DNA from: Escherichia coli
Lineage (GTDB): Bacteria > Pseudomonadota > Gammaproteobacteria > Enterobacterales > Enterobacteriaceae
NCBI RefSeq assembly: GCF_001677475.2
Contig: NZ_CP015229.1
DNA length: 64,000 bases
Strand: one strand, 5' to 3'
Shown: piece by piece, positions 13,409-58,101 of the stretch
How positions within the stretch are numbered: the first letter of the stretch is position 1
Layout: every line of letters begins with the position of its first letter
Notes under the pieces: generated by a model
What the model saw: only the letters and a program-made list of their open reading frames with translations
Told to the model about the DNA's origin: nothing
The model's database searches: none
Made by a program: the position numbers and the translations under genes

Positions 13409-13921
13409 ATGCTTACAATGATATTTAACCGCCTGAAACTTGCGGTAGACCGCGTCATTGCCGCGTTTTCTGTCGCCGTAATGCTTGCTCTGGTTGTATG
13501 CGTAGTCTGGCAAGTATTTAGCCGCTACGTACTTAACCAGCCAAGTACATTAACCGATGAGCTGGCACGCTTTTTGATGATCTGGGTAGGATTATTAGGT
13601 GCTGCATATACCGTCGGCGCGCAGAGACATCTCTCTATCGATTTATTTGCTCTCGCCCTGAATAAGCGCAAGCAATTACTTCTTAGTATAGTCATTAACG
13701 TTCTTATTTTAGGTTTTGCCGGTTCGGTCATTGTGACTGGTGGCCTGAAATTAATTGATAAAACACTGGCAACATCACAGGTATCTGCCGCGATGCAAAT
13801 ACCGATGGGATACGTATATATCATTCTGCCATTAAGTGGATTGGTGATGATGTTTTATGCCTTGTGTTTTATTAATCAAAGCATTCAACAACTGAAACAA
13901 CCTGCGCAGGAGGCCAGTTAA
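13409..13921 (+). CDS. TRAP transporter small permease (DctQ family)
   Basis: 170 aa, four hydrophobic segments; position between the SBP and the large permease. Confidence 0.7.
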   Translation: MLTMIFNRLKLAVDRVIAAFSVAVMLALVVCVVWQVFSRYVLNQPSTLTDELARFLMIWVGLLGAAYTVGAQRHLSIDLFALALNKRKQLLLSIVINVLILGFAGSVIVTGGLKLIDKTLATSQVSAAMQIPMGYVYIILPLSGLVMMFYALCFINQSIQQLKQPAQEAS

Positions 13922-14507
13922 TGGATAGTTATATCGCGCTTACACTGTTTGGCTGTTTTTTTGTGCTGGTCTTTATTGGTGTGCCCATTTCGTTCTCAAT
14001 CGGTATTGCCACTGTAGCTTCAATGCTGTTGATGTTTCCCTGGGATATCGCGGCAATCACTGTTTCGCAGCGACTGGCTAATGGACTGGATAACTTTGCC
14101 CTATTGGCAATCCCCTTTTTCATCTTTGCCGGAACGCTGATGAACAGCGGCGGTATTGCGATACGTTTGATTAACCTCGCCCAGGTAATGGTTGGCCGCG
14201 TTCCTGGTTCGCTTGGTCATGTGAACGTCCTGGCGAATATGATGTTTGGTTCCATTTCTGGTTCAGCCGTTGCGGCAGCTGCTGCCGTTGGTGGCACACT
14301 GAATCCCATTCAGACCAAAGAAGGTTATGATCCGGCATTTTCTACCGCTGTAAACGTCTCATCCTGTATTACTGGATTACTGATACCGCCCTCAAACGTG
14401 TTAATTGTGTTTTCCCTGACAGCTGGCGGCGTTTCTGTAGCATCGCTATTTATGGCGGGATATTTGCCAGGGATCTTAATGGGTCTCGCGGTAATGGTTG
14501 TCTGCGC
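13921..14507 (+). pseudogene. TRAP large permease (DctM family), N-terminal fragment truncated by IS66
   Basis: 196-aa hydrophobic ORF whose stop codon is created by the IS66 end; the C-terminal continuation is found at 45325-46046 on the minus strand. Confidence 0.75.
14501..14507. repeat. 7-bp direct repeat TCTGCGC (target duplication of the IS66 insertion in dctM, left copy)
   Basis: Same 7 bp found in reverse complement at 46040-46046, abutting the other IS66 copy. Confidence 0.6.
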
Positions 14508-14592
14508 GTAAGCGTAAACCGACCGCCGTATGTAGCCATTAGACAAGAATTGGTAACTTAGACGCCCATCTGACACAGACGGACATCTAAGT

Positions 14593-15012
14593 ATGGAATT
14601 ACAGGACTGGCGAAAAGAACCTCGTAAAAAGTATTCGAATGAATTCAAACTTCGTATGGTTGAACTGGCATCACAACCCGGTGCTTGTGTGGCTCAGATT
14701 GCACGAGAAAATGGCGTCAATGATAATGTTATTTTCAAATGGCTCAGACTCTGGCAAAACGAAGGGCGTATATCACGGCGTCTTCCGGTGACAACCACTT
14801 CTGATGCAGGCCTTGAATTATTACCTGTAGAGATAACCTCTGATGAGCCGAAAGAACCGATGGCTGCTCTTACTCCGCCCTTATCCACTCAGACTACTGT
14901 CAGTGCCAGCTCCTGCAAGGTGGAGTTCCGTCACGGTAACATGACGCTGGAAAATCCTTCACCAGAGCTGCTCACTGTATTGATTCGTGAACTGACCGGG
15001 AGGGGAAGATGA
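14593..15012 (+). CDS. IS66 family accessory protein (orfA/TnpA)
   Basis: 139 aa with HTH-like N-terminus; first gene of the IS66 triad. Confidence 0.85.
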   Translation: MELQDWRKEPRKKYSNEFKLRMVELASQPGACVAQIARENGVNDNVIFKWLRLWQNEGRISRRLPVTTTSDAGLELLPVEITSDEPKEPMAALTPPLSTQTTVSASSCKVEFRHGNMTLENPSPELLTVLIRELTGRGR

Positions 15013-15359
15013 TCTCACTCCCATCCGGTACCCGTATCTGGCTCGTTGCCGGGATAACCGATATGCGTAAGTCTTTCAACGGGCTGGGTGAACAGGTACA
15101 GCATGTGTTAAATGTTAATCCCTTCTCCGGTCACCTGTTTATCTTCCGTGGCCGACGGGGTGACACCGTTAAAATTCTTTGGGCTGATGCTGATGGTCTG
15201 TGCCTGTTCACCAAACGCCTGGAGGAAGGCCAGTTTATCTGGCCTGCGGTGCGTGACGGTAAGGTATCCATTACCCGCTCGCAACTGGCAATGCTCCTCG
15301 ATAAGCTGGACTGGCGTCAGCCAAAAACATCCCGCCTTAACGCCCTGACAATGTTGTAA
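15009..15359 (+). CDS. IS66 family accessory protein (orfB/TnpB)
   Basis: 116 aa; ATGA overlap with orfA. Confidence 0.85.
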   Translation: MISLPSGTRIWLVAGITDMRKSFNGLGEQVQHVLNVNPFSGHLFIFRGRRGDTVKILWADADGLCLFTKRLEEGQFIWPAVRDGKVSITRSQLAMLLDKLDWRQPKTSRLNALTML

Positions 15360-15389
15360 AAAACGCCTGGCCGCATTATAAAAACGGCC

Positions 15390-16982
15390 ATGAGTCAGAA
15401 ATACCTCATTCGCATTGCAGAACTGGAAAGCCAGCTCCGTCAGAAAGACCAGCAACTGAGTCTGGTTGAAGAGACGGAGGCCTTCCTGCGCTCTGCACTG
15501 GCACGTGCCGAAGAAAAGATCGAAGAAGATGAACGGGAAATAGAACATCTGCGGGCTCAGATAGAAAAACTGCGCCGGATGCTGTTCGGTACCCGTTCTG
15601 AAAAACTGCGTCGTGAAGTTGAACAGGCTGAGGCCCTGCTGAAACAACGCGAACAGGACAGCGATCGTTACAGTGGGCGGGAAGACGATCCACAGGTTCC
15701 CCGCCAGTTGCGACAGTCGCGCCATCGTCGTCCGTTACCGGCACACCTTCCCCGTGAAATACACCGTCTGGAGTCTGAAGAAAGTTGTTGCCCGGAATGT
15801 GGCGGCGAGCTGGATTATCTGGGGGAAGTCAGTACTGAGCAGCTGGAACTGGTGAGCAGCGCCCTGAAAGTGATCCGCACAGAACGGGTAAAAAAAGCCT
15901 GTACAAAATGTGACTGCATCATTGAAGCACCGGCGCCGTCCCGCCCGATAGAGCGTGGTATCGCGGGCCCCGGATTACTTGCCCGCGTGTTAACGGGAAA
16001 ATACTGCGAACACCTGCCACTGTATCGTCAGAGTGAAATCTTTGCCCGACAGGGTGTCGAACTGAGCCGTGCATTACTCTCCAACTGGGTTGACGCGTGC
16101 TGCCAGTTAATGATGCCGCTGAATGATGCCCTGTACCGTTATGTGATGAATACCCGCAAGCTTCACACTGACGACACACCGGTAAAGGTACTGGCACCGG
16201 GCTTGAAAAAGACGAAAACAGGGCGCATCTGGACGTATGTCCGGGATGATCGCAATGCGGGTTCGTCATCTCCTCCGGCGGTCTGGTTCGCGTACTCACC
16301 GAACCGGCAGGGGAAACACCCGGAGCAACACCTCCGCCCCTTCCGGGGTATCCTGCAGGCGGATGCGTTCACAGGTTATGACAGGCTGTTCAGTGCAGAA
16401 CGTGAAGGTGGTGCGCTGACAGAAGTTGCGTGCTGGGCCCATGCCCGGAGAAAAATCCACGATGTATACATCAGCAGCAAAAGTGCGACGGCAGAAGAAG
16501 CCCTGAAGCGAATCAGTGAACTGTACGCCATCGAGGATGAAATACGGGGATTACCAGAGTCAGAGCGTCTTGCAGTCAGACAGCAGCGAAGCAAAGCGTT
16601 ACTGACGTCGCTGCATGAATGGATGGTGGAGAAGAATGGCACGCTGTCGAAAAAATCCAGACTGGGCGAAGCGTTCAGCTATGTACTGAATCAGTGGGAC
16701 GCCCTCTGTTATTACAGTGATGACGGACTGGCGGAGACGGACAATAACACAGCGGAAAGAGCGCTTCGTGCAGTCTGTCTTGGAAAGAAAAATTACGTGT
16801 TCTTCGGTAGCGATCACGGTGGCGAGCGTGGTGCACTGCTATACGGGCTGATCGGCACCTGCCGTCTGAACGGTATCGATCCGGAAGCGTATCTGCGCCA
16901 TATTCTGAGCGTACTGCCGGAATGGCCCTCCAACCGTGTTGACGAACTCCTGCCATGGAACGTGGTTCTCACCAATAAATAA
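15390..16982 (+). CDS. IS66 family transposase (TnpC)
   Basis: 530 aa with N-terminal coiled coil/leucine zipper, CxxC zinc-finger motifs and DDE-type core. Confidence 0.9.
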   Translation: MSQKYLIRIAELESQLRQKDQQLSLVEETEAFLRSALARAEEKIEEDEREIEHLRAQIEKLRRMLFGTRSEKLRREVEQAEALLKQREQDSDRYSGREDDPQVPRQLRQSRHRRPLPAHLPREIHRLESEESCCPECGGELDYLGEVSTEQLELVSSALKVIRTERVKKACTKCDCIIEAPAPSRPIERGIAGPGLLARVLTGKYCEHLPLYRQSEIFARQGVELSRALLSNWVDACCQLMMPLNDALYRYVMNTRKLHTDDTPVKVLAPGLKKTKTGRIWTYVRDDRNAGSSSPPAVWFAYSPNRQGKHPEQHLRPFRGILQADAFTGYDRLFSAEREGGALTEVACWAHARRKIHDVYISSKSATAEEALKRISELYAIEDEIRGLPESERLAVRQQRSKALLTSLHEWMVEKNGTLSKKSRLGEAFSYVLNQWDALCYYSDDGLAETDNNTAERALRAVCLGKKNYVFFGSDHGGERGALLYGLIGTCRLNGIDPEAYLRHILSVLPEWPSNRVDELLPWNVVLTNK

Positions 16983-17012
16983 GCGTCAATACGGTGCTCC
17001 GTTGACGCTTAC

Positions 17013-17020
17013 GGCCAGCG
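17013..17020. repeat. 8-bp target-site duplication GGCCAGCG of the IS66 insertion in IS629 (one copy)
   Basis: Identical 8 bp (as CGCTGGCC) abuts the other IS66 copy at 48552-48559. Confidence 0.8.
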
Positions 17021-17624
17021 ATACATACTGAGAACCTTTATCACTGTGATGGATTGTGCCGGACGGCCGACGGGCCCACAACGCCTGCTCCAGTGCATCC
17101 AGCACGAATGTTGTTTCCATGGATGATGAGACCTGCCATCCCACGATGTATCCGGCGAACACATCAATGATGAACGCCACATAAACGAAGCCCTGCCATG
17201 TGCTTACCCAGGTAAAATCAGCCACCCACAACTGGTCTGGACGTTCTGCCACGAACTGACGGTTTACGCGGTCGCATGCGGCAACGGCTTTCCGGCTGAC
17301 GGTAGTGCGGACCTTTTTACCCCGGAGAACACCGGCAAGTCCCATAACTGCCATGAGACGTGCCACAGTGCATCTGGCCACTCTGATACCTTCCCGTAAC
17401 AACTGACGCCAGACTTTACGCACACCGTATACCTGGTGATTTTCATCGTATACGCGCTGTATCTCTTTCTTCAGCCAGTCATCGTGCTGCGCACGGGCAC
17501 TGCGTTTATCCGGATGATGTCGCTGTTGCTGACAATGGTAATACGTTGACGGGGCAATATGCAGTTCGCTGCATACCGGTCCGACCCCGTACTGCTCACG
17601 CAGCTTATCCAGCAGTGGCATCAT
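17013..17624 (-). pseudogene. IS629 transposase orfB, N-terminal fragment interrupted by IS66
   Basis: IS3-family OrfB sequence ...HHSDKGSQYVSLA ends at the IS66 junction; the remainder YTQRLKEAG... is at 48560-48838. Confidence 0.8.
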
Positions 17625-17947
17625 TTTTTCCAGAGGCGGTCGAACTCCGCCTTCGCAAAATAAGCGGAAGCCTGGCGAAGGATATCGTTACTGCGGCGCA
17701 GTTCACGATTTTCACGTTCCAGCTCTTTCAGACGCTGACGTTCAGCGCTGGTGAGCCCACCATCACCGCCCCCGGTATCCCGCTCATGCTGGCGAACCCA
17801 GACACGCAGAGTCTCCGGCGTACAGCCAATCTTTGGGGCAATGGAACAAATTGCCGCCCACTGTGAGTCATATTCATCCTGACTTTCCAGAACCATACGA
17901 ATCGCCCGCTGACGGACTTCGGGGGAAAAACGAGTATTTTTAGTCAT
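17621..17947 (-). CDS. IS629 orfA (IS3 family transposase N-terminal protein)
   Basis: 108 aa, [22 protein letters not shown]... with leucine zipper; overlaps orfB in the -1 frame as in IS3 family. Confidence 0.85.
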
Positions 17948-18001
17948 CCTGTTTACCTCTTTCTCAGGGAGTTTAGTCTCCAGGATTTCCGGGGCGGTTC
18001 A

Positions 18002-18550
18002 GAGCAGCAACTCAGGGCGCTGCTGACACCCTCACCGGATGTGCTTTCAGCAGACCAGATGATGCAGCTCAGCAGAACACTGTTAAATCATGCGTCAGAG
18101 TGGATAACCCTTTCCGGTCAGCAGATAACGCGACTGACAGAATTCCCCCCGGCATACAACCTGCAACGCAGTGTGCAATTGCTGCAGCAACTGATGGTAC
18201 TTTTCCCCGACAATCCTCGTGTTCAGGAAATGGTGGATAACTGGCAGAAGAGTGCAAGGAGTCGTGCGCTCCCGGAAGAGGCGATGACTGGCTGGAACGA
18301 AGGCATGACCCGCTTACAGCTGTTGGCTGAGCGCCTGAACCGTCCAGATGAACAGCGGGGAAAATACATGACGGTCAGTGAGCTGAAAACGGAGGTGTCT
18401 GGCATCATGCAGGCTTTTAACCGGCATATCCTGGCAGAAGAACAGTTGTGTCACTATGGTGAAGTCCGCAACCAGAATGGAAGCGAGCAGCAGCAAAAAC
18501 AAATGAAAGATGCATTTGTTAAGCTGATTCATTTTTACTGTTTTATATAA
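18002..18550 (+). pseudogene. C-terminal part of a TssA/ImpA-like gene separated from its N-terminal part by IS629 and the inversion
   Basis: Reading frame is open from the IS629 end at 18002 and continues the frame that ends ...PAE at 48881 on the other IS629 flank. Confidence 0.4.
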
Positions 18551-18603
18551 AGCCTTTAGGATGTGGGGTAAGGGGAGTGTTGCAATTTATTCGGTGAGAT
18601 AGT

Positions 18604-19311
18604 TTGTTTGTGGAGTGTTTAAGCGCTTTTGGATGTTCGTCTGTTGTTTCGAATAGTATGGTGAATATGAATGGTAAATATAATGTCAGGAGTGAATTGT
18701 TAGCTCGTTGTATCGGAACTGGTAGATTGAAAGGAGATGTGAGAAGTGATTTTATTGGGTTTAATGGTAGTAAACAGGTAGGTTATGTTTTATTAACTTT
18801 ATTCTTAACGAAAGTAACAAATTCTGATTTGCTCTCTCATTATCGTATATTTAATCGTTTTTTGCATTATGAGAGAAAAGTTATGGACATATATAATTCT
18901 TTGAGTGATATAGAAGTTGATTGTATTTGCCAGGAAGTGATGGCTATATATGAACATACTCAGCGATGCTGCAACGAAAAGAAAATCACAACTATCCAGT
19001 TAGGCAGGAAACTTAATGGCAGGTATGCAGATACGATTGCTGAGTTAAAAGAAACAGCAGAGATAAGAGGGGAGGATGTGATTTCTTTTGAGATGGATAT
19101 ATTGAATTCTTTTAATGATGCGGATGAATATCACGGACGTGTTAAACTGGAGTTGGATATACCTGCTTCAGATATATTATATTGCCATGATTTTATTGAT
19201 TCAAAACATGTAAACTCCTGGTTGGTTGAACCACATGAGTGGGTGGTTATAAATCGTTCTCTCAATGGGATTGTTACAGTGCCAGTATCATCAATAAAGA
19301 TTCTTTATTGA
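18604..19311 (+). CDS. hypothetical protein (AT-rich island gene)
   Basis: 235-codon ORF in a markedly AT-rich segment; true start may be internal; no recognisable motif. Confidence 0.35.
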   Translation: MFVECLSAFGCSSVVSNSMVNMNGKYNVRSELLARCIGTGRLKGDVRSDFIGFNGSKQVGYVLLTLFLTKVTNSDLLSHYRIFNRFLHYERKVMDIYNSLSDIEVDCICQEVMAIYEHTQRCCNEKKITTIQLGRKLNGRYADTIAELKETAEIRGEDVISFEMDILNSFNDADEYHGRVKLELDIPASDILYCHDFIDSKHVNSWLVEPHEWVVINRSLNGIVTVPVSSIKILY

Positions 19312-19451
19312 TAAATATGTTTGTAATATGTTTTATATGTTCATCAGGATGAAAGTAAGCAATTTTAGTAGTGGCTAATTAAACGTCATTTAATGTTTGT
19401 TGCTATATGTTGAAAGCATAAACAGGTTTCTTTTGCATAAAGTAAAAATAA

Positions 19452-20684
19452 ATGAATGATAATTTTTTAACGGAGAAAGTCCTTACTGGAGAGAATGTTC
19501 TGCGTGCAGCAATTGCTCGTATTGAGTGGATTTTTGAAACATTTCCATCAGTTTGTCTCTCTTTTTCCGGTGGTAAAGATTCCACCGTGCTTTTCCATCT
19601 TGTGGCTGATGTGGCCCGCAGGAAAAGACGTCGTTTCTCTGTACTGTTCATTGACTGGGAGGCTCAGTACCAGTGCACCATTGAACATATTCAGAAGATG
19701 CGGGAAATGTACTATGATGTGACGGAAACCTTTTACTGGGTGGCGCTTCCCCTGACCACGGTAAACGGTGTCTCGCAGTTTCAACCGGAGTGGATATGCT
19801 GGGAGCCTCGTGTGACCTGGGTTCGCCAGCCACCGGAAGAGGCCATTACGGATATGGCGTATTTTCCCTTTTACCGGTATGCCATGGCGTTTGAAGAATT
19901 TGTTCCGGCATTTTCTTCCTGGTTTGCTGGCAACCGGTGTGGAGTGGCAGTGCTGACCGGTGTCCGGGCGGATGAATCCCTCAACCGCTTTATGGGACTG
20001 GTGTCCCAGCGCAAACTGAGATATGCCAATGATAAGCCTTGGACCACGGCATCGCCTGAAGGGTTTTACTACACTATGTATCCGCTGTATGACTGGAAAA
20101 CTCGTGATATCTGGATATATCACACCAGAACCCGTGCCATCTACAATCCCCTGTATGATCTGATGTACCGTGCCGGCGTACCGTTACGCAACATGCGTGT
20201 CTGTGAACCTTTTGGTCCTGAACAACGTAAGGGACTGTGGCTTTACCATGTTCTGGAACCGGAAACCTGGGCCAGGATGTGTGAGCGGGTGTCAGGGGCT
20301 GCCAGCGGGGCACTTTATGCCAATGAAAGCGGGGCTTATTTTGCCCTGCGTAAGCGCATATCAAAACCAGCCCATCATACCTGGCGCAGCTATGCGATGT
20401 TTCTGCTGGATGTGATGCCGGAAAGAACGGCAGAACATTACCGCAACAAGATAGCTGTCTATCTGCGCTGGTATCAGACGCGGGGCTTCCCGGATGACAT
20501 CCCGGATGAACAGGAGAATGACCTGGGGAGCCGGGATATTCCGTCCTGGCGACGTATCTGTAAGACTCTCATAAAGAATGATTTCTGGTGCCGTACCCTC
20601 TCCTTCAGTCCGAACAAACCCCGGCACTATGAACGTTATCTGCAGCGTATGAAAGAAAGGAGGAAGGAATGGGGGATTCTGTGA
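19452..20684 (+). CDS. ibrA: PAPS-reductase-like protein, IbrA-like (co-activator of prophage gene expression)
   Basis: 410 aa with SGGKDS PP-loop motif near the N-terminus; partnered with a ParB-like gene as in the described ibrAB pair. Confidence 0.75.
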   Translation: MNDNFLTEKVLTGENVLRAAIARIEWIFETFPSVCLSFSGGKDSTVLFHLVADVARRKRRRFSVLFIDWEAQYQCTIEHIQKMREMYYDVTETFYWVALPLTTVNGVSQFQPEWICWEPRVTWVRQPPEEAITDMAYFPFYRYAMAFEEFVPAFSSWFAGNRCGVAVLTGVRADESLNRFMGLVSQRKLRYANDKPWTTASPEGFYYTMYPLYDWKTRDIWIYHTRTRAIYNPLYDLMYRAGVPLRNMRVCEPFGPEQRKGLWLYHVLEPETWARMCERVSGAASGALYANESGAYFALRKRISKPAHHTWRSYAMFLLDVMPERTAEHYRNKIAVYLRWYQTRGFPDDIPDEQENDLGSRDIPSWRRICKTLIKNDFWCRTLSFSPNKPRHYERYLQRMKERRKEWGIL

Positions 20685-21307
20685 CACCGGAGATACTGAG
20701 CAACATGATTCGTCAGTACTTCAGCCAGGAACGACCAGAAGAAGAGGCCATACAGGCCCTGAATCATCTGCGCAGGGTGCTTCATGAGGTCAGTCCATTT
20801 GCACAGGAGCCTGTGGACTGTGTGCTGTGGGTGAAAGCAGATGAGGTGGTGGCCAACGATTATAACCCCAATGTCATGGCGCCGGGTGAGAAGAAACTGC
20901 TGAAACATTCACTGGAGCAGGATGGGTTCACGCAGCCTGTGGTTGTCTCGGAAGAGAAGGAGCATTATCTGGTCGTGGATGGTTTTCATCGTCAATTACT
21001 GGGCAGGGAAGCAGGTACGGGAAAACGCCTGAAGGGCTGGTTGCCAGTGACCTGTATTAATCCGGAAAGAAAGGGACAGGCCTCACGTATTGCTGCAACC
21101 ATTAGACATAACCGGGCCAGGGGGAAGCACCAGATAACTTCAATGTCTGATATTGTCAGGGACCTGTCGCGGCTGGGCTGGACGGATGAACGTATTGGTA
21201 CGGAGCTGGGTATGGACCAGGATGAAGTTCTCAGGTTGAAACAGATTAGCGGGCTGACGGAGCTGTTTCTGGAAGAGGATTTCAGTCCGGCATGGACGGT
21301 TCGCTGA
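20669..21307 (+). CDS. ibrB: ParB-like nuclease domain protein, IbrB-like
   Basis: 212 aa; overlaps the ibrA 3' end by 16 nt; ParB/Srx-type N-terminal region. Confidence 0.7.
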   Translation: MGDSVTPEILSNMIRQYFSQERPEEEAIQALNHLRRVLHEVSPFAQEPVDCVLWVKADEVVANDYNPNVMAPGEKKLLKHSLEQDGFTQPVVVSEEKEHYLVVDGFHRQLLGREAGTGKRLKGWLPVTCINPERKGQASRIAATIRHNRARGKHQITSMSDIVRDLSRLGWTDERIGTELGMDQDEVLRLKQISGLTELFLEEDFSPAWTVR

Positions 21308-21346
21308 GACCGTCATATATGTATATTATTTCAGTGAGTTAATGTT

Positions 21347-21655
21347 TTGAGCAGGAAAAAGAGTACCCCGGAAGTCGTGGAAGACATGGTTGCACAGAAG
21401 CTGGAGGCTGCGGGTTGCTGGCGCAGAGCTTCCGCCCGCTGGCTTTTTGTTATGGGAAATGTTGAATGTACAGAAGCACAACGGGAGTGGTTGTTGTTGC
21501 GCAGGAATTATTGCCTGGCGCAGATATCGTCCCCGCCGCTACCTGAAAAGCTGGATATCAGCGAAGTGGCGAAAGCTGCAGATGCCACGCTGAGGCGAAT
21601 GGGGATTGCCAGTCCGTCCGGGGAGGTATTCAGAAAAGGTACACCGGTCTGTTGA
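21347..21655 (+). CDS. hypothetical small protein (weak resemblance to PerC-family activators)
   Basis: 102 aa; LEAAGCWRRASARW segment resembles PerC/Pch-type proteins as I recall them; not verified. Confidence 0.35.
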   Translation: MSRKKSTPEVVEDMVAQKLEAAGCWRRASARWLFVMGNVECTEAQREWLLLRRNYCLAQISSPPLPEKLDISEVAKAADATLRRMGIASPSGEVFRKGTPVC

Positions 21656-21675
21656 TATTCAGGTAACAGGTATTA

Positions 21676-22320
21676 ATGATAAAGAAAGGAATGGCAAACA
21701 GTATATCAATGACATGGCAACTTTTATGCGATGATCATGGTTTTACCCGGGAGCACTACAATCAGCTGAAGAAATTCAGCCCGGAGGCATTACGTGAAAT
21801 TATTGCTGAAATAGCCTGCTGCCATCCGTCAACCAGTATATTGCTCAGGAATAAGTGGCTGACACCGCCGGAGGATATTCCGGAGCAGGTTACCCGTGAA
21901 TACGAACGAAGAATACAGAACTGTCCATCTTTCAGGAGCGAGAAAGAGGCGGAATCCTGGCTAAATGAACTGTTTTTTGCTGTGATTGCGCCGCTATACC
22001 GGGTTGTCCCCGGACAATCAGAACAGGTTGAATCCTTTGTTCTGCAGCTTATTGCCGAACAGGAGCGGGTTTGGGAGCTTATTCTAACCAATGATGGTTA
22101 TTCATGGCATTGCGCACTTTATGATATATTATTTCATCTGGTTTTACGAAATATGGAAGACCAGCCTGAACATCAGAGACAGCGAATAACAAAAATACTT
22201 AATGAGTCCGATACAAGGCGGGTTGCAGAAGAGATTAAATTCCGGATTCAATATCTTCAGGATGAAGAACAAAAGAGAGTTTTAAGTGAGTTGGTAAATG
22301 TCCTGATTTCAAAAAGATAA
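21676..22320 (+). CDS. hypothetical protein
   Basis: 214-codon ORF co-directional with ibrAB; no recognisable motifs. Confidence 0.4.
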   Translation: MIKKGMANSISMTWQLLCDDHGFTREHYNQLKKFSPEALREIIAEIACCHPSTSILLRNKWLTPPEDIPEQVTREYERRIQNCPSFRSEKEAESWLNELFFAVIAPLYRVVPGQSEQVESFVLQLIAEQERVWELILTNDGYSWHCALYDILFHLVLRNMEDQPEHQRQRITKILNESDTRRVAEEIKFRIQYLQDEEQKRVLSELVNVLISKR

Positions 22321-22384
22321 AACATGTCGGAGTAATTTTTCTATATATTAAAAAAACAGGTTCGTATTACCATAAAGGAGATCG

Positions 22385-22708
22385 GTGAGTAACCGTTATT
22401 GGATGATCTCCTTCCATAAAAATACGCGCAATCTAACGGTTTGCTCTGTGCCAAAAAAAGACATTGCTCACAATATCGAGTTAATCATTCGGCCGTTGAA
22501 CATTCCCATTGAAAAATTTCTCAGTATAGAATATACCAATGTTGAGGGCATTCCTCTTACATCTCGAAGGATAACTATCATGGGTCTAAAACCAGGTCCA
22601 AAACCAATTGCTAAGTCAACAGGAAAACCGGATCAACGCCGACGCGATAATAAAGATACTCCTGGCAATACTCCGGGATTAAAGCCAAGTAAGTCCACAG
22701 GTAAGTAA
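22385..22708 (+). CDS. hypothetical protein
   Basis: 107-codon ORF with a Pro/Lys/Gly-rich C-terminus; convergent with the helicase gene. Confidence 0.3.
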   Translation: MSNRYWMISFHKNTRNLTVCSVPKKDIAHNIELIIRPLNIPIEKFLSIEYTNVEGIPLTSRRITIMGLKPGPKPIAKSTGKPDQRRRDNKDTPGNTPGLKPSKSTGK

Positions 22709-22755
22709 AAAATAAGGGTATAAATACTTATTTATACCCTGACTACATATCCAGT

Positions 22756-24954
22756 CTACTGAAGGTGTTTCTGCAGCCAGATGCACGTTCCTTTTATATC
22801 ATACGCCTGTGCCCCATACCCTTTAGCAAGCAAAGTCTCTGGTAAATACTCGTCATATTTATCCAGATACTTGTCGGGAACAACTGCAGCAAGCTCAAAC
22901 TCTGAAGGTAGCCCCGACAATAGCATTTTCTTAAGTGCACGCTGGACAGAGGCAACGCCTGAGTCCTCTACCTCTATCACACCTGCAAATGAACTGGCTT
23001 TAAAGCCACAACGTATAATCAGGGACGTAATTGTATTGACAATTTTATCCCCCATCCACGGGATCACGTAGCAGTTCTGACCACTGGCAATAAAACAGTC
23101 ATTTTGTAGATTGTAGCGTTGGAAGTTGTCACTTCCTTCCGCGAAGAGGCTTCTGGCTGCGGCATCAGCATAATCGACTCTCTTGTTGCCTACCGCGATA
23201 CGGTAATCATTTTCCCTGTAGATAGTGAGCATTTCCTGGCGAACAACATCATGAACAGACATCCCGGTACCACTGAATAGTGGCGGCTGACCGCCTTTAG
23301 TCGTCTCAACATAGATAACCTTTTTTTCAACCTCGATCTCTGTCACTTTCCAGCGCCGTCCGCCGAAGATGATGTGCTGCTCCGGCAAAAGTGGGGAGTC
23401 TACAGGCACTGTGCCAAGAGTTCGGTTTCCCGTTACAATGCGAAACTCCTCAGGTGTATTGAATACGGCATAAAACGTGTAGTGATTAGTCAGCTTCTCC
23501 CCCTCAGCCCCGACAACTATTTCACCGCTGGTTAGTTGAGTGAGCAGGCCACATGTCCCCATATGTTTAAGCAGACTTTTGAAGTCATTTATATCCACAT
23601 TCCGGAACGGACCTGTCTGGCAAAGTTGTGACCAGAGCTGATCGGCACGAACACCTCCCCATTGCGCAGTAATAGCCAGGATCTGGTGTAGTAGTGTGGA
23701 GTAATGTTTCTGCCGGATATCTGCAGGCTCGAACCAGCGCTTAGAGATCATCAACCTGATCATTGCCATCGCCTGAACCAACTGCAGCCGTAAATGATCC
23801 ACAATGCTGCTGGTTGCGGTAAGTTCAGGTTCAGTAATTAACATTCTCAGCACCGATGGGGAATCGCGCCGCCCTGAACGTCCCATGCGTTGACGCAGAC
23901 TGGAAACAGAATGCGGAGGTGTCACTTGTATGACAGACTGCACCTTACCAATATCAATACCCAGCTCCAGCGTCATTGTACAAACAGCGGTTGTGGGCAA
24001 ATTCCCTTTCTGCAGTCGGGCTTCAAGCGCCTCACGCAACTCCCTTGCAAGGGAACCATGATGAGGAAAGAATTCATTAGGAACGACATTTGCTTCACAC
24101 ATGTCGCTCAGTGTTGCCGCTATGCTTTCAGTACGCTTTCGACTGTTAGCAAAGACCAGGTGGGAATCGCCACGGCAGAGCCTGAAAATATCCGCGCAGA
24201 CGAGCTGTTCAGCAGAGCTCTGGAGCTCTTCTCCTTTTTCGGGCACCCGCTCAAGATAACCTTTAACCTGAACCTGTAGTGTGGCTTTGCTATTACTGTC
24301 TGTTACCGTTTCACAAGGTAATCTCTTATCCGGGCGCAATAGTTCTGGTACTTTTTCCAGCTCTCCCAGCGTGGCACTCAACGCGACACGGGGAACTGGA
24401 TTCAACTGGCGTCCCAGCACATGGTCAATTCTGTTAAGCAGAGAAAGCAGCTGTATACCACGCTCTGAGCCAATAAAAGCATGGAACTCATCAATAACAA
24501 TGTATGCCACAGAAGAAAACGCCTGTTTGAGCCAACCCAATGAGTTTATGAGCAAAGACTCAAGTGATTCAGGTGTGATAAGTAAGATGCCAGAAGGGGT
24601 TGTCCGTGCTTTCTTCTTTTTGCTTTGTGGTACATCCCCGTGCCAGGGCGTCACTTGCATTTCCAGGGCTTCACCAAGACTCTCAAGACGACGGTGTTGA
24701 TCGTTAATTAATGCCTTCAATGGACTGATATAGATAATGCCAAATCCACCAGTGAGATCTGCAATCGCTGAACAGGCAGGAAGAAAGAAAGCCTCTGTTT
24801 TACCCGCAGCTGTACCTGCACTAATTAGTACATCACGATCACGGGCTAAAATTGCCGGAATAGAGCTTTCCTGCAAGGGCCTTAAGGATGACCAGCCCTG
24901 CTTATAAACCCACTTACGGACACGGGGATCAAGACTATTGTAGGCACTACTCAT
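22756..24954 (-). CDS. SF2 DExH-box helicase (Lhr-like), third gene of a candidate defence operon (SngC-like)
   Basis: 732 aa with motif I AGTAAGKT, motif II DEFH, motif III SAT, motif VI QRMGRSGRR; ATGA start/stop overlap with the upstream ATPase gene. Confidence 0.8.
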   Translation of the reverse strand: MSSAYNSLDPRVRKWVYKQGWSSLRPLQESSIPAILARDRDVLISAGTAAGKTEAFFLPACSAIADLTGGFGIIYISPLKALINDQHRRLESLGEALEMQVTPWHGDVPQSKKKKARTTPSGILLITPESLESLLINSLGWLKQAFSSVAYIVIDEFHAFIGSERGIQLLSLLNRIDHVLGRQLNPVPRVALSATLGELEKVPELLRPDKRLPCETVTDSNSKATLQVQVKGYLERVPEKGEELQSSAEQLVCADIFRLCRGDSHLVFANSRKRTESIAATLSDMCEANVVPNEFFPHHGSLARELREALEARLQKGNLPTTAVCTMTLELGIDIGKVQSVIQVTPPHSVSSLRQRMGRSGRRDSPSVLRMLITEPELTATSSIVDHLRLQLVQAMAMIRLMISKRWFEPADIRQKHYSTLLHQILAITAQWGGVRADQLWSQLCQTGPFRNVDINDFKSLLKHMGTCGLLTQLTSGEIVVGAEGEKLTNHYTFYAVFNTPEEFRIVTGNRTLGTVPVDSPLLPEQHIIFGGRRWKVTEIEVEKKVIYVETTKGGQPPLFSGTGMSVHDVVRQEMLTIYRENDYRIAVGNKRVDYADAAARSLFAEGSDNFQRYNLQNDCFIASGQNCYVIPWMGDKIVNTITSLIIRCGFKASSFAGVIEVEDSGVASVQRALKKMLLSGLPSEFELAAVVPDKYLDKYDEYLPETLLAKGYGAQAYDIKGTCIWLQKHLQ

Positions 24955-26267
24955 AATCTGAAATTCGCCAGGCCATCATCGTCATCACTTTCCTCCACAA
25001 TGGCATCATCCATATCGCTGAGCTTGTCTTCTTCAATCGCCACCCCCTCAATGAGGGTTTGCCAGTTCATCGTTCTGTTTTGTTCCAGCACAGCCAGCAT
25101 ATCCAGAAAACCTTTTATGGTATTGCGGGGAGTTCGAAAGTAAGCATCTCCGATGGTTTTGCTGCAGTGATGCAGAAACCCGGTCAGAGCATCATCTGGC
25201 ACCAGATAATTTGCGGGATCTCCACCAGCATAAACATGACGAAGGTTTTTCAGTAAAATATACAGTTCCTCAGGAGTGAGGCTGGCAAGATGCAGCGTGG
25301 GGGACGAGTAGTCAATCACGCCAGCTTTCTGTGCGAATCGGTTTTCTGCCAGACGCGACTGGAGCGCTTCATAGCTGTAGAGCCCCTTACGTGGATCGAA
25401 AAGAAATTCTGGCGTCCCCCCGAGGATAAAACCAATATTTTCGGCGGAGCCTTGCAGGCAGTCATTCAGGATCCGCAAAATTTGTTCGTAGTTGGCCGTT
25501 CTCGCTTGCGTATTATTCAACTTGAAGAGGTTCACCATCTCGTCGAGGCTAACTAAAAGTCCGGCATAGCCTGCCTGACGGACAAAAAGGCTCATCAACT
25601 TCAAAGAATCATAGAACGAGGCGTCTGAGATAATCGTTCGGACGTCAAGATCATTACGGGCATCAGTTTTTGTGGTGTACTCGCCCCGCAACCAGCGAAT
25701 AGCATTGGATTTTAAGGTTTCGTTATCCTGCTCATGCCCGCGCCAGAATGCGTCAATGACCTTCGCAAAGTCATATCCTCCCACCATATCTGACAAAGCA
25801 GCAAGGCGTTTATGAATAACGGATGAGACCAGGGAGCCGTTCGCATCAGCTTCCTTCCTTGCCTCAGTAACAAACCTTTCCACAACGCTAAGTAATGCAT
25901 TGCCATCTGGTTTGTTTCTGGTGGACATATTTTTCATAAGCTCTGAGTAGAGATTACGAGCCTGACCTCCCGATGAGTGGATACGTCTGTCGGGAGAAAG
26001 GTCTGCACTGACCGTGACCAGCTTCTTCTCTAACGCAATAGACCGTACAACACTTAAAAAGAATGTTTTCCCGGAACCGTACTCACCAATGATAAGTCTG
26101 AAGCTTGCCCCGCCATCAGCAATCCGTTCAATATCCTGATGGAGGGCGGTTATCTCATTCACGCGGCCAACCTGGATATGCTGAATACCTATTCTTGGCG
26201 TTACTCCCGACTTAAGTGACTGAATGATAGCGTCGCGCTCTTTCACTCTTATACGTGTTACAGACAT
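24951..26267 (-). CDS. P-loop ATPase, second gene of the candidate defence operon (SngB-like)
   Basis: 438 aa with Walker A GEYGSGKT and Walker B-like LLVSLDEM; acidic C-terminus. Confidence 0.8.
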   Translation of the reverse strand: MSVTRIRVKERDAIIQSLKSGVTPRIGIQHIQVGRVNEITALHQDIERIADGGASFRLIIGEYGSGKTFFLSVVRSIALEKKLVTVSADLSPDRRIHSSGGQARNLYSELMKNMSTRNKPDGNALLSVVERFVTEARKEADANGSLVSSVIHKRLAALSDMVGGYDFAKVIDAFWRGHEQDNETLKSNAIRWLRGEYTTKTDARNDLDVRTIISDASFYDSLKLMSLFVRQAGYAGLLVSLDEMVNLFKLNNTQARTANYEQILRILNDCLQGSAENIGFILGGTPEFLFDPRKGLYSYEALQSRLAENRFAQKAGVIDYSSPTLHLASLTPEELYILLKNLRHVYAGGDPANYLVPDDALTGFLHHCSKTIGDAYFRTPRNTIKGFLDMLAVLEQNRTMNWQTLIEGVAIEEDKLSDMDDAIVEESDDDDGLANFRL

Positions 26268-26270
26268 TCA

Positions 26271-28580
26271 CTAACCCTCTAATTCTTTGGCTATTTCCAG
26301 GTCAATCCAAATGTGATCATCAGCATCTTCCAGCACTGGTGCATCAACCACCGCATAGGACCAATCGTTAATCACCTCAAGCGCACCGCCGAGCATCAGG
26401 TTCCAGTTACTACACAACTCTGTCGCCTCTTTTCTGGACCATTGTTCTTTCTCCAGCAACCTGCGATAAAGTTGGCTATGAGCGGAGTCAAGTCCCCCTT
26501 CCCCGGTTAATGAGGCTGGAGCGCTTTCTGGTTGTTCTGGTTCTTCTTCAGTGAAAATTGAGTTCAGTAATTTACGAACATCATCAGTGGCAGATTCGTG
26601 GCGGGCAAGTACGTTGGCATCCAGCGTAAACCCTGCCGTCGACTGATTAGCTGGTACAGATGAAACGAGAGCAGTTTCAGTTGCGGAATGCTGATGGATA
26701 TTGCTTGATACGGATGAGGGATCCAGTCCCAGGCTTGTATAAATCTTCTCAAGCTGTTTGATTTCGGCAGGCGTAATTCTGCCGTCAGAGCAAGCGACAC
26801 TAACGATAACCTTACCCACAGCTGATTTTTCCGCTGCACCGAGTAATTCAATCCGGCTTTTCATTCCCGTCATATTCGCCGGAGTATGAAGCTGCCACGT
26901 TAAATATGCGTGCAGAGAGCGCTTTTCATCATCGCTGAAGCTGGCATTGTTGTTGATGGCATTCTCAAGCACTTTCTGTTCGGCTTGATCGAGAGAATTG
27001 TCAATCAAGGCGACTACCGAACCTAATCGGAGCGTCAATACAGCTGTGATAAATTCAGGAGAAGGTGAGAAACGTCCTCTTTCACCAGCAGGGAATAAAA
27101 CAAGTACACCATCGACATCTGCCTTTACGTGGTGGTGATAGGGGTCAGGAGCCAGACAGTATCCCATTTTCTGTGCAAAGGCTTGCATTAAGTCGGCCTC
27201 TTTTTTATTGATCTTCGCCGGACAGGTGGCATTCATATGTGACCAGTAGTCAGCAACTGAAACTATCCCACCCTTACTGCGGATTGCGTCATCAGCCCAG
27301 TGTTTGAATGTACTTAATATTTTTTCTGCGCTTTCGTTAACGATTTCTGAAGGCAGCAACAAAATTGCAGCGGTATCATTTGCTGAAGTACCTTTTCTAC
27401 CAAGGTAACGACTGTAAGCATCCAGTTCACCTGTGCATATATCGGCAATGGCCATAAGCTTCTGAACAGGGCCTTTCAATGCACCTGGATCAGGCAAGTC
27501 GGGAACAGGAAGCCGAATACCTCGCAAACTGGGACTTGCAGGCGTGTAATCTAAACGCAGACGCGCTTTATTCGGCTTCACTACCATCCCTTCACCGTAT
27601 TTAAGGGTGTAACGCCGTTTAAATAGTGCAGCAAATTCTTTCGCACAGCGGCGGGCGGGGGTTCGTAATGAGTATTCAGCATGGTTTGTCACCCACGTCA
27701 GAGCCAGATCCGCTGGAACCGGGGCTCCTGTATCAACAGTCTTTGCCAGGATTAACCTGAACTGCATGCTATTGCTGAACTCCGAATCATCGTTGAGAGC
27801 TGCTGCAAGATTTTCGTTCGGACGAAGAATGGACATCGCTTCAAGTAACTGGGATGAGTAATTCCGGAAAGATCGGTTTTCATTGAAAACCGATCTGAGA
27901 CGGCAGATCTCTTTGAAAAGAGAATAGAACTCATCGTCGGATATATTGTTGTCCCTGCTGTCAACAAGCGCCCTTCTTTCCAGACCATACAGATAAATGA
28001 AAACGTAACCAATTGGGCAGGAAGTGTCGCATCTGTCGCTGGCAAGCCAACTCAGGTACGCACCACGAGCTTCAGGTGAAAGTGAGGAAAAACTGGGCCA
28101 ATACCCTAATGAACTATCTTCGTAAATGTAAGGTGTGGGGGATATTTTAAGCGTGTCGTCAACTAGCGATGCCTCGTTATTGCCATCATAATAACCGCCT
28201 GAGTTATGCCCGGCAGGTTTCATACGCTGCCCAAGATAGAAGTGACCGCCGGTAACCTCTATCCCACTGACTGTGATCATCTCTCCCGGAAAAATCCAAC
28301 GAGCCAAAGCACCGGTAGTTTTTGAGAAATTCTGGCGTTGAGTGGCTGTTATGCTGTATTCGACATTCCGCCCGCCACTTAGTGTAAACGTAGCCAGATT
28401 GTCATCTTCGCTGTCCTCGTTTTGCATTACAGACTGATTTTTTTTGTTGTTAGCAAGCCATTCTTTAGGTGGTGCTTTCACAGGAGCGGAAGTATAAGAG
28501 CCCGCGGACTTAGTTTTCTTCTTTTTGAAAAAAAGAATATAAATCAAATAAATAGCTACTATAAATATCCATAACTCCAT
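26271..28580 (-). CDS. large N-terminally membrane-anchored protein, first gene of the candidate defence operon (SngA-like; TerB domain not verified)
   Basis: 769 aa; N-terminal hydrophobic helix MELWIFIVAIYLIYILFF followed by KKKK; 3-nt spacing to the ATPase gene. Confidence 0.7.
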   Translation of the reverse strand: MELWIFIVAIYLIYILFFKKKKTKSAGSYTSAPVKAPPKEWLANNKKNQSVMQNEDSEDDNLATFTLSGGRNVEYSITATQRQNFSKTTGALARWIFPGEMITVSGIEVTGGHFYLGQRMKPAGHNSGGYYDGNNEASLVDDTLKISPTPYIYEDSSLGYWPSFSSLSPEARGAYLSWLASDRCDTSCPIGYVFIYLYGLERRALVDSRDNNISDDEFYSLFKEICRLRSVFNENRSFRNYSSQLLEAMSILRPNENLAAALNDDSEFSNSMQFRLILAKTVDTGAPVPADLALTWVTNHAEYSLRTPARRCAKEFAALFKRRYTLKYGEGMVVKPNKARLRLDYTPASPSLRGIRLPVPDLPDPGALKGPVQKLMAIADICTGELDAYSRYLGRKGTSANDTAAILLLPSEIVNESAEKILSTFKHWADDAIRSKGGIVSVADYWSHMNATCPAKINKKEADLMQAFAQKMGYCLAPDPYHHHVKADVDGVLVLFPAGERGRFSPSPEFITAVLTLRLGSVVALIDNSLDQAEQKVLENAINNNASFSDDEKRSLHAYLTWQLHTPANMTGMKSRIELLGAAEKSAVGKVIVSVACSDGRITPAEIKQLEKIYTSLGLDPSSVSSNIHQHSATETALVSSVPANQSTAGFTLDANVLARHESATDDVRKLLNSIFTEEEPEQPESAPASLTGEGGLDSAHSQLYRRLLEKEQWSRKEATELCSNWNLMLGGALEVINDWSYAVVDAPVLEDADDHIWIDLEIAKELEG

Positions 28581-28809
28581 GAGGCAGTAACCTTAAAAAT
28601 AGCTTTTCACGCACACCAAAAAGGATGACGATGGGAAGTGGATTAATCTCAAAATAATACTTCTAAATTAAAAAGGTTAAAAGCAAATCACAACCTTCCT
28701 GAGCTTCCGCTTTTCTCTTTCAGAGGGCTGAAGTCGTTATCTGTAACCAGAGGAGATCAGTAGCCCGTTATGCCAGCTAAAGCACTCCGGGCAGATTGCC
28801 CGGAGTGCT

Positions 28810-28990
28810 TAATATTTTAATGGATTGTTAATCTTCGCATACTCAAAGGGGCTGGTATTTTCTTTCGAGTTTGTATCCAGAAAATCCCCCCACCACTGTA
28901 GCATCAACCGACGCTATTCCAGGTGTTCTGTTTTATGGATATAAGCCGCCCTTAATGAATTACGTTCCATGTGGCTCATCTGACGTTCAG
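28810..28990 (-). pseudogene. remnant of the 3' end of a second P4-type integrase gene
   Basis: ~180 bp closely similar to the 3' end of the intact integrase gene at 31928 (encodes ...AKINNPLK-like C-terminus); same flanking hairpin CCGGGCA...TGCCCGG. Confidence 0.6.
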
Positions 28991-29208
28991 CCGCTTTATC
29001 TCGTGCTGTTTTGGTCTTAATACTTCCATGCCGCTGCGATTACCTCTTAAACCCGCCCTTACCATTTTTATGGGTACGATAAGAAAACTTTATCGGGCAC
29101 GATCGATTTTATCGATCGATTCGATCGAAAACATTCCTTTTACCCTATCTTTTGCATGGTTTTAGAATGAGCAACCCCATTTATCGTTCGGGGAAAGTGA
29201 TAGCGGAG

Positions 29209-29958
29209 ATGATTGAAATGAATAAGGTTATTGCGGTTTCAGCGCTTGCCATGGCAGGCATGTTTTCGACCCAGGCTCTGGCTGATGAGAGCAAAACAGG
29301 CTTTTATGTGACCGGTAAAGCAGGTGCTTCTGTTATGTCACTTGCAGACGAGCGTTTCCTGTCGGGTGATGGAGAGGAAACATCAAAATATAAAGGCGGT
29401 GATGGCCATGATACGGTATTCAGTGGCGGTATCGCGGCCGGTTATGATTTTTACCCGCAGTTCAGTATTCCGGTTCGTACGGAACTGGAGTTTTACGCTC
29501 GTGGAAAAGCTGATTCGAAGTATAACGTAGATAAAGACAGCTGGTCAGGCGGTTACTGGCGTGATGACCTGAAGAATGAGGTGTCAGTCAACACACTGAT
29601 GCTGAATGCGTACTATGACTTCCGGAATGACAGTGCATTCACACCATGGGTATCTGCAGGGATTGGCTACGCCAGAATTCACCAGAAAACAACCGGTATC
29701 AGTACCTGGGATTATGGGTACGGAAGCAGTGGTCGCGAATCGTTGTCACGTTCAGGCTCTGCTGACAACTTCGCATGGAGCCTTGGCGCGGGTGTCCGCT
29801 ATGACGTAACCCCGGATATCGCTCTGGACCTCAGCTATCGCTATCTTGATGCAGGTGACAGCAGTGTGAGTTACAAGGACGAGTGGGGCGATAAATATAA
29901 ATCAGAAGTTGATGTTAAAAGTCATGACATCATGCTTGGTGTGACTTATAACTTCTGA
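29209..29958 (+). CDS. putative outer-membrane beta-barrel protein
   Basis: Signal peptide (…AMAGMFSTQALA), alternating beta-strand-like pattern, C-terminal ...LGVTYNF with terminal Phe. Confidence 0.55.
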   Translation: MIEMNKVIAVSALAMAGMFSTQALADESKTGFYVTGKAGASVMSLADERFLSGDGEETSKYKGGDGHDTVFSGGIAAGYDFYPQFSIPVRTELEFYARGKADSKYNVDKDSWSGGYWRDDLKNEVSVNTLMLNAYYDFRNDSAFTPWVSAGIGYARIHQKTTGISTWDYGYGSSGRESLSRSGSADNFAWSLGAGVRYDVTPDIALDLSYRYLDAGDSSVSYKDEWGDKYKSEVDVKSHDIMLGVTYNF

Positions 29959-30109
29959 CAAAACTGCTCCTGAAAGATAATAATTACCCATCTTCTGTAA
30001 TTAAACGAAGACTCCCTGCAGTAATTATACTGCAGGGTTGTTTGTTATCTGTTTCACAGGAGACTTCTGATTTTTATTCTCTTCACAATAATGTTGTCGA
30101 TATACTCCG

Positions 30110-31609: not shown

Positions 31610-31927
31610 TCATATATGGCAAACTGTAATACAGTTGCTTGTACTGAAAAGTATTCTGTATAAAACAGAATCCGTATTCATATCAGCACAAGGGACCACC
31701 AAATCCCGGCAGTATTCCTTACGTCAGTTATCCCGCATCACTCTGTGAGTGAGTTTTTTTATGAGGTTACTTTTTCATTGAATATAAATAATGAATAACC
31801 GCAGATTCTGATAATCCTCCTCCAGGGAACAATCAGGTAAACAGTAAATACATCAGTTAATACCATTTTGTCTTTTTAACAAAGAAAATATTCATGGAGT
31901 AAGTTCCCGGGCATTTGCCCGGGATGA

Positions 31928-33193: not shown

Positions 33194-33347
33194 AGTTCAG
33201 CCTTCTGAATGCGTTAAAGAGGGTACAAATTCTGTCGAACTGGGGTATACCCGCAATTATACCCACACAATGGGGTTGATGTGGGGGGAATCTGGTTGAG
33301 TTCGGTAGAATTGATTTGGAGGAAGAACACTTAAATCATGGTGTTCT

Positions 33348-33381
33348 GAAACGAAAAACGGACCTCCGTGGAGGTCCGTTG
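33348..33381 (-). terminator. terminator downstream of pheV
   Basis: Hairpin GGACCTCCACGGAGGTCC followed by a T-run on the minus strand. Confidence 0.6.
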
Positions 33382-33390
33382 ATATGAATT

Positions 33391-33466
33391 TGGTGCCCGG
33401 ACTCGGAATCGAACCAAGGACACGGGGATTTTCAATCCCCTGCTCTACCGACTGAGCTATCCGGGC
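33391..33466 (-). tRNA. pheV: tRNA-Phe (GAA anticodon)
   Basis: Reverse complement reads GCCCGGATAGCTCAGTCGGTAGAGCAGGGGATTGAAAATCCCCGTGTCCTTGGTTCGATTCCGAGTCCGGGCACCA. Confidence 0.95.
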
Positions 33467-45285: not shown

Positions 45286-45326
45286 TTTGCCGGATAATAT
45301 AAAAGTTATCCGGCAAATTATTTTTT
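45286..45326. terminator. terminator hairpin after yggM
   Basis: GCCGGATAA...TTATCCGGC followed by a T-run. Confidence 0.6.
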
Positions 45327-46046: not shown

Positions 46047-46076
46047 GTAAGCGTCAACGGAGCACCGTATTGACGC

Positions 46077-47669: not shown

Positions 47670-47699
47670 GGCCGTTTTTATAATGCGGCCAGGCGTTTT

Positions 47700-48466: not shown

Positions 48467-48551
48467 ACTTAGATGTCCGTCTGTGTCAGATGGGCGTCTA
48501 AGTTACCAATTCTTGTCTAATGGCTACATACGGCGGTCGGTTTACGCTTAC

Positions 48552-48559
48552 CGCTGGCC
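48552..48559. repeat. 8-bp target-site duplication (CGCTGGCC), second copy
   Basis: Reverse complement of GGCCAGCG at 17013-17020. Confidence 0.8.
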
Positions 48560-50075: not shown

Positions 50076-51863
<1,788 letters not shown>

Positions 51864-52055
51864 AAACGCACCTTAATCTGTGAACAAAAAAATAATCACC
51901 ACCGACACCCACGACGTTATATCGTGGGTGTCGTTTTATTCAGAAATAAAAAACAGAATCATTAACATGACCGGAATACTGTGAACCATGCTGCAGGATA
52001 TCTGCAGATATCCCTCCTGTTATATCCGGCCGGAATAAAATCAGAACACTGATTG

Positions 52056-58098: not shown

Positions 58099-58101
58099 CC
58101 A

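Follow-up and report, generated by a model that had tools for sequence, protein, structure and literature searches.

An IS629 element interrupted by an IS66-family insertion, with its two parts separated by an inversion, in an Escherichia coli chromosome

We analyzed a stretch of 64,000 nucleotides from Escherichia coli (contig NZ_CP015229.1 of assembly GCF_001677475.2; "the window," with positions counted from its first base). Within the window, a single IS629 element was interrupted by an IS66-family insertion sequence, and the DNA between this insertion and a second, oppositely oriented copy of the same IS66-family element is inverted relative to other E. coli. IS629 came first and the IS66-family element entered it afterwards. 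The two parts of IS629 (18001 to 17013 and 48552 to 48880) are now 31.5 kb from each other, one on each strand, and the two halves of dctM, the gene at the other end of the inverted segment, are reciprocally separated.

The two parts of IS629

The left end of an IS3-family element (TGAACCGCCCC) lies at position 18001 on the minus strand, where the sequence opens TGAACCGCCCCGGAAATCCTGGAGACTAAAC. This piece stops at 17013, where it adjoins an IS66-family end (GTAAGCGTCAAC), and its orfB reading frame (…IHHSDKGSQYVSLA, minus strand) runs into GTAAGCGTCAACGG, the IS66-family end at 17012. On the plus strand, another IS66-family end (…GGTTTACGCTTAC) closes at 48551 and is followed by CGCTGGCC and then by TACACGCAGCGGCTTAAGGAAGCC…, which reads YTQRLKEAG…. 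The orfB peptide …SDKGSQYVSLA, which halts at the first junction, is picked up by this YTQRLKEAG… from position 48560. The right end of the element is at 48880 (…CCGGGGCGGTTCA, or in longer form …CCCGGGGCGGTTCA). The features of the two parts are as follows.

17013–18001, minus strand: left part of IS629, 989 bp, comprising the IRL, orfA, the frameshift region, and the first 204 codons of orfB; 100% identical to positions 1–989 of the IS629 of phage BP-4795
17013–17020, minus strand: last 8 bp of the left part, a copy of the IS66 target duplication
17621–17947, minus strand: orfA, 108 amino acids, intact; matches the IS3-family transposase profile NF033516 at profile positions 1–86
17550–17666, minus strand: ALIL pseudoknot (RF01497), overlapping the A6 run where orfA ends; full-model match (1–117) with 121.5 bits (gathering score, 50)
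48552–48880, plus strand: right part of IS629, 329 bp, with 2 mismatches to the IS629 of BP-4795
48552–48559, plus strand: second copy of CGCTGGCC
48560–48880, plus strand: last 92 codons of orfB, including the DDE glutamate region, and the IRR

When the 989 bp from 18001 to 17013 on the minus strand are joined to the 321 bp from 48560 to 48880 on the plus strand, the result is exactly 1310 bp. (Counted with both copies of the duplication, this is 989 bp plus 329 bp minus 8 bp, as a preliminary description of this DNA had reckoned.) The rebuilt orfB is unbroken over 296 codons in the −1 frame, orfA is intact at 108 amino acids, and the two overlap at TGGAAAAAATGATG. The rebuilt termini are TG…CA imperfect inverted repeats (TGAACCGCCCCGG… and …CCGGGGCGGTTCA) that match at 13/13 bases and then partially to about 25 bp. 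The rebuilt OrfB scores 311.9 bits against NF033516 (cut-off 160), at profile positions 93–369. The ALIL pseudoknot is the frameshift-stimulating RNA of IS3-family elements. By an alignment of the DDE motif, the IS66-family element probably entered after the second Asp and before the Glu.

The 8-bp sequence CGCTGGCC occurs once at each break, at 17013–17020 (as the reverse complement) and at 48552–48559. The probability of an 8-bp match at exactly the expected position by chance is about 1.5e-5, and this is besides the exact length and the restored reading frame.

The rebuilt element aligns without gaps over 1310/1310 positions to bases 49450–50759 of phage BP-4795 (AJ556162), with 2 mismatches (99.8% identity), and the coding sequences in that interval were named by the depositors as "transposase OrfA/OrfB protein of IS629." The alignment is complete across the joint at positions 989/990. 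As it is ungapped, the 8-mer CGCTGGCC is present only once in the intact element. The two differing bases, at element positions 1043 and 1067, both lie in the short right piece (48560–48880), and the 989-bp left piece is identical, which is not statistically meaningful with n = 2. Intact 1310-bp elements in several E. coli chromosomes and plasmids also match the rebuilt sequence in a single ungapped piece at 99.8% identity, as does a copy in E. coli O26:H11 strain 11368 at 99.7%. The preliminary description had placed the left terminal repeat at 18001 and had orfB broken at the IS66 junction and resumed at 48560; its coordinates, lengths, and peptide strings were all right. It had also given 1310 bp as the length of IS629 and proposed that the rebuilt sequence should align end to end with IS629 or another single IS3-family member and contain the 8-bp duplication once, and the alignments to the BP-4795 and O26:H11 copies bear it out on both counts.

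The match to a copy from O157:H7, which PGAP labels as "IS3-like element IS1203 family," is lower (95.9% identity, 54 mismatches, no gaps). Three subtypes of IS629 have been distinguished (IS1203-like, Shigella IS629-like, and O26:H11 IS629-like), and these are 4–5% (55–60 bp) apart (Rump et al., PMC3271280). The 95.9% identity fits this level of divergence. By its sequence, then, the window's IS629 appears to be the O26/BP-4795 variant, at ~4% from the O157 IS1203-family copy.

The IS66-family copies and the inverted segment

A repeat search found a sole inverted repeat pair in the whole window, 14508–17012 and 46047–48551. The repeats are 2505 nt long, 100% complementary, and 29,034 nt apart, and they correspond to two copies of an IS66-family element.

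14508–17012, plus strand: IS66-family copy 1, 2505 bp, with ends GTAAGCG…CGCTTAC; full-length copies that are 100% identical exist elsewhere
14593–15012, plus strand: tnpA of copy 1
15009–15359, plus strand: tnpB of copy 1
15390–16982, plus strand: tnpC of copy 1
46047–48551, minus strand: IS66-family copy 2, 2505 bp, in the opposite orientation to copy 1, with 100% identity

The tnpC end of copy 1 (plus strand), at 17012, lies beside the left part of IS629, and the tnpA end of copy 2 (minus strand), at 48551, lies beside the right part. Each copy has three open reading frames, of 139, 116, and 530 codons. Their products match family profiles for TnpA (NF047595, 81.2 bits against a cut-off of 74), TnpB (NF033819, 119.4 bits against 50), and TnpC (NF033517, 447.6 bits against 180). 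The termini of the element are GTAAGCGTAAACC… and …GTTGACGCTTAC, and its repeats begin with GTAAGCG. Other E. coli chromosomes and plasmids carry full-length 2505-bp copies at 99.5–100% identity, and four of the five other copies that we inspected have a perfect 8-bp direct duplication just outside GTAAGCG…CGCTTAC. Thus, the interrupting element is a complete member of the IS66 family and is probably active. The preliminary description had called it IS66. The assignment to the IS66 family stands, given the tnpA, tnpB, and tnpC profiles, but the element is not IS66 proper: it is a 2505-bp member of the family. PGAP gives the 100% identical copies the generic label "IS66 family transposase," with no specific element name.

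If one IS66-family element inserted into IS629 and the DNA between two inverted copies was then flipped, the other two IS66-family ends should flank a second broken target. The gene dctM is such a target.

13921–14507, plus strand: 5′ half of dctM (TRAP-transporter large-permease gene), truncated by IS66-family copy 1; Pfam DctM profile positions 1–186 of 413 (open reading frame 13921–14511)
14501–14507: dctM target duplication, TCTGCGC
45325–46046, minus strand: 3′ half of dctM, adjoining IS66-family copy 2; Pfam DctM profile positions 218–413 (open reading frame 45325–45951)
46040–46046: dctM target duplication as its reverse complement, GCGCAGA
18002–18004, minus strand: left copy of the IS629 target duplication, CTC; the empty site is 3 bp shorter
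48881–48883, plus strand: right copy of the IS629 target duplication, TTC, with one mismatch to CTC, from comparison with the empty site
18002–46046, no strand assigned: unique DNA of the inverted segment, comprising part of the pheV island and core genes from the yqgA–speC side through yggM; collinear with strain JE86-ST05 over 18002–33440
33391–33466: tRNA-Phe in the inverted segment

If the sequence up to 14507 is joined to the reverse complement of the sequence up to 46039, the resulting empty site of dctM is found as one contiguous piece in 1463 E. coli genomes (query coverage of 80% or more). There, the rejoined site is annotated as "TRAP transporter large permease," followed by yggM. 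The duplication in dctM is 7 bp, versus 8 bp in four of the five other copies, and the length of the empty site in reference genomes agrees with 7 bp. This reflects either a true 7-bp staggered cut or the loss of 1 bp at one junction, and our main conclusion is unaffected.

Similarly, the empty site of IS629 (the reverse complement of the sequence from 18002, joined to the sequence from 48881) is contiguous in 326 E. coli genomes and is 3 bp shorter than the join in the window. In JE86-ST05, position 18002 of the window corresponds to base 7012 in the forward direction, and window positions 18002–33440 are collinear with it; position 48882 corresponds to base 7013 in the backward direction, and positions 48882–51953 align in reverse. 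Because bases 7012 and 7013 are adjacent, the sequences that flank the split IS629 are neighbors in the reference, and they lie on opposite strands in the window. The duplication is imperfect (CTC versus TTC), and the empty site in JE86-ST05 and other strains has CTC. The mismatch is due to a point change after the insertion or to imprecise duplication, and either leaves our main conclusion unaffected.

These data also bear on whether the two pieces came from two different copies of IS629, each truncated separately by an IS66-family element. Both kinds of element are multi-copy in E. coli, which would allow it. However, the same 8-mer is found at both breaks, the pieces total exactly 1310 bp with the frame restored, the bases just outside the two pieces are next to each other in other genomes, and the reciprocal halves of dctM fit one and the same inversion. 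We consider that these observations refute a two-copy origin in practice and that its probability is close to nil.

Including the left part of IS629 and one IS66 length, the inverted interval is 31.5 kb between equivalent junctions. The part of it that belongs to the pheV island carries a VasL fragment, PAPS-reductase/IbrB-like (ibrAB-like) genes, a helicase/ATPase/TerB-N trio, and genes for an outer-membrane protein, a phosphoethanolamine transferase, and a P4-type integrase. We assumed the gene names for 33.5–45.3 kb from the gene order in K-12 and the sizes of the open reading frames, with an annotated match only for yggM. The GC skew of core DNA in the inverted segment is +0.039, versus −0.007 and −0.145 in the flanks. 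A sign opposite to that of the flanks fits an inversion, weakly, as the measure is too noisy at this scale. It is also silent on when the flip occurred, or whether it is real in this strain, as the same sign would be expected after a recent flip. The strongly negative value of −0.145 is from 48881–64000; elsewhere in the window the skew is about −0.01 to +0.04.

Several other features of the window are worth recording. A 199-nt direct repeat with 78% identity links 28796–28994, which is annotated as an integrase pseudogene fragment in JE86-ST05, to 31915–32113, where an intact P4-type integrase gene (31928–33193), beside tRNA-Phe, has its 3′ end. Since an integrase fragment and the 3′ end of an intact integrase share this repeat, the sequences suggest that two islands may have accreted in tandem at pheV. 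Also within the pheV island, three co-oriented minus-strand genes (22756–28580) encode a DEAD/DEAH helicase (732 amino acids), an ATP-binding protein (438 amino acids), and a TerB-N-domain protein (769 amino acids), a layout that looks like a defense-system cassette. Two minus-strand island genes at 50076–53300 encode a NERD-nuclease/UvrD-helicase fusion (595 amino acids; "3'-5' exonuclease" in relatives) and a 414-amino-acid protein with a T5orf172/MUG113 (GIY-YIG-like) domain. Finally, 54400–64000 holds an F4 (K88)-like fimbrial operon with homologs of faeD, faeE, faeH, and faeJ, which are 91–94% identical to their best matches among complete E. coli genomes, and no complete E. coli genome covers 80% or more of 51900–64000. 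The strain itself is thus absent from that set of genomes, and its fae-like cluster is divergent.

Order of events and the mechanism of the inversion

The order of the two insertions is secure: IS629 was present first, and the IS66-family element entered its orfB afterwards. The duplicated 8 bp belong to IS629 and are single in its intact copies, which requires this order. The preliminary description had gone further and ordered the events as IS629, then IS66, then the inversion. That IS629 preceded the IS66-family element is borne out, and so is the separation of its halves by an inversion, as seen from the split dctM and the adjacent flanks. That the insertion and the inversion were two separate steps is only the likeliest reading.

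We propose the following history. First, a 1310-bp IS629 of the O26/BP-4795 variant inserted into a degenerate region with remnants of a type VI secretion system (ImpA_N and VasL fragments) in the pheV island of an E. coli-type chromosome, with a 3-bp duplication. Second, the 2505-bp IS66-family element inserted into orfB of IS629, duplicating 8 bp (CGCTGGCC) and killing the transposase. Third, an identical second copy would have come to lie about 29 kb away, in inverted orientation, within dctM. Finally, homologous recombination between the inverted 2505-bp copies would have flipped the DNA between the crossover points. We think that this stepwise history as a whole, from IS629 through the insertion into orfB to an inversion by recombination between the IS66-family copies, is likely to be correct. 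For the final step, recombination of the RecA type is the most likely mechanism, and we infer that the copy in dctM was already there, from a separate event.

Across 5,426 complete E. coli genomes, species-representative genomes, and metagenome contigs, we found none of the potential intermediates (IS629 alone at its site, IS629 with the IS66-family insertion but without the inversion, or dctM with the IS66-family element and no inversion), so the stepwise path rests on parsimony. Neither the IS66/IS629 junction nor the dctM/IS66 junction had a same-junction match in the 5,426 complete E. coli genomes; the records that "covered" these junctions were unrelated juxtapositions that matched in two pieces at lower identity. 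For the junction between IS629 and its flank, there were 0 records with query coverage of at least 80% among complete E. coli genomes (n = 5,426). An exact 38-mer across the IS629/IS66 junction had 0 matches in contigs of GTDB species-representative genomes and 0 in metagenome contigs. Thus, all three insertions are private to the window's strain within the data searched. Because none of them recurs elsewhere, the insertion of IS629 and both IS66-family insertions seem to be recent, and the 100% identity of the two IS66-family copies points the same way.

Two genomes came up in these searches and were set aside. TB354, which was the sole record with more than 80% coverage of window positions 14000–18600, is unrelated: near the same island, it has an intact copy of a different IS3-family element (94.4% identical to our rebuilt element) by a different IS66-family insertion. 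FDAARGOS_1289 has an IS3-family element near VasL, but at another site.

A different path to the same structure is a one-step duplicative inversion. A single IS66-family copy, in either dctM or IS629, would have transposed replicatively into the other site, ~29 kb away on the same molecule (Shapiro-type transposition), creating the second, inverted copy and flipping the segment together. The predicted product is what we see, namely two identical inverted IS copies with each target duplication split, one copy per IS, and inverted. Indeed, when we derived the Shapiro-type product, we obtained Y–tsd_b–IS(+)–tsd_a(rc)–629L(rc)–…–tsd_b(rc)–IS(−)–tsd_a–629R–W, which is the arrangement in the window. 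The structure is compatible with both homologous recombination and duplicative inversion. Among complete E. coli genomes, no genome has either IS66-family insertion alone, which would also be expected from a single step. Furthermore, the IS66 family is absent from the list of families with known circular copy-out-paste-in intermediates in one survey, which did not establish the pathway of IS66 (bioRxiv 10.1101/2023.06.07.543989). On the other hand, the other copies of the IS66-family element that we checked are all simple insertions, flanked by an ordinary direct duplication of 8 bp (perfect in 4 of 5), and in the literature that we searched, the IS66 family has no reported case of replicative intramolecular transposition. 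Recombination between identical 2.5-kb repeats is a frequent and sufficient alternative that does not depend on the mechanism of transposition. This makes a duplicative inversion unlikely in our judgment. If it did occur, the locus would be natural evidence on the transposition pathway of the IS66 family, one without a description in the literature that we searched.

It is also conceivable that the orientation of the segment reflects an ambiguity of the assembly, or a mixed or flipping population, and that only the two IS66-family insertions, in IS629 and in dctM, are real. Short reads do not span the 2505 bp over which the repeats share 100% identity, and among complete E. coli genomes the inverted arrangement is found in no other genome. 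This seems quite improbable because the sequence has no sign of misassembly and because IS-mediated inversions of this size are well known to be common. (The GC skew of the segment, with its sign opposite to that of the flanks, would also agree with a true inversion, although it is uninformative on whether the flip is real.) Recombination between the inverted IS66-family copies is the reading that we prefer.

Consequences and comparison with known systems

We infer that this IS629 is dead, that dctM is inactivated, and that both IS66-family copies are still intact. As the ends of IS629 no longer face each other, the element should not be mobilized in trans. In annotation, the pair of "partial IS3-family transposase" fragments should be treated as halves of one feature, and so should the pair of dctM fragments. 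The 31.5-kb segment, which contains pheV, part of its island, and roughly a dozen core genes, should be marked as inverted with respect to other E. coli. The locus is also a textbook case of how the order of mobile-element events can be read from target-site duplications.

The element itself closely resembles other copies of IS629, a member of the IS3 family (with isoforms IS1203 and IS3411) that is found in Shigella sonnei, E. coli O157:H7 and O26:H11, and the Stx phage BP-4795. It shares the length of 1310 bp and the TG…CA imperfect inverted repeats, as well as orfA and orfB of 108 and 296 amino acids in the 0 and −1 frames, with the A6 run and the ALIL pseudoknot. Its target duplication would be of 3 bp, within the 3–4 bp of the IS3 family: the window has 3 bp more than the empty site, and the two copies read CTC and TTC. 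In BP-4795 the duplication is perfect, GGT/GGT. In the window, unlike in an intact IS629, the 2505-bp IS66-family element breaks the sequence at 989/990, and each strand now carries one half.

The 2505-bp element is a different member of its family from IS66 of the Agrobacterium Ti plasmid. With the enterobacterial members of the tnpA–tnpB–tnpC type (IS679 and the ISEc8/ISEc23/ISEc47 group), it shares the three genes and the GTAAGCG…CGCTTAC ends. It also shares the 8-bp duplication at the IS629 site, but the dctM site differs, with 7 bp.

The class of event is already known: a nested IS insertion with an IS-mediated inversion is ordinary scrambling of the genome by mobile elements. Shigella, Yersinia pestis, Bordetella pertussis, and E. 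coli O157 all provide well-documented cases of inversion by homologous recombination between inverted IS copies. As in those cases, two identical inverted IS copies bracket the flipped DNA, and each copy has mismatched flanking duplications that are paired again once the segment is flipped back. In contrast to them, the inversion here is small (31.5 kb) and asymmetric about the origin and terminus of replication, and one of its breakpoints is inside another IS, which is why the event was visible in the preliminary description.
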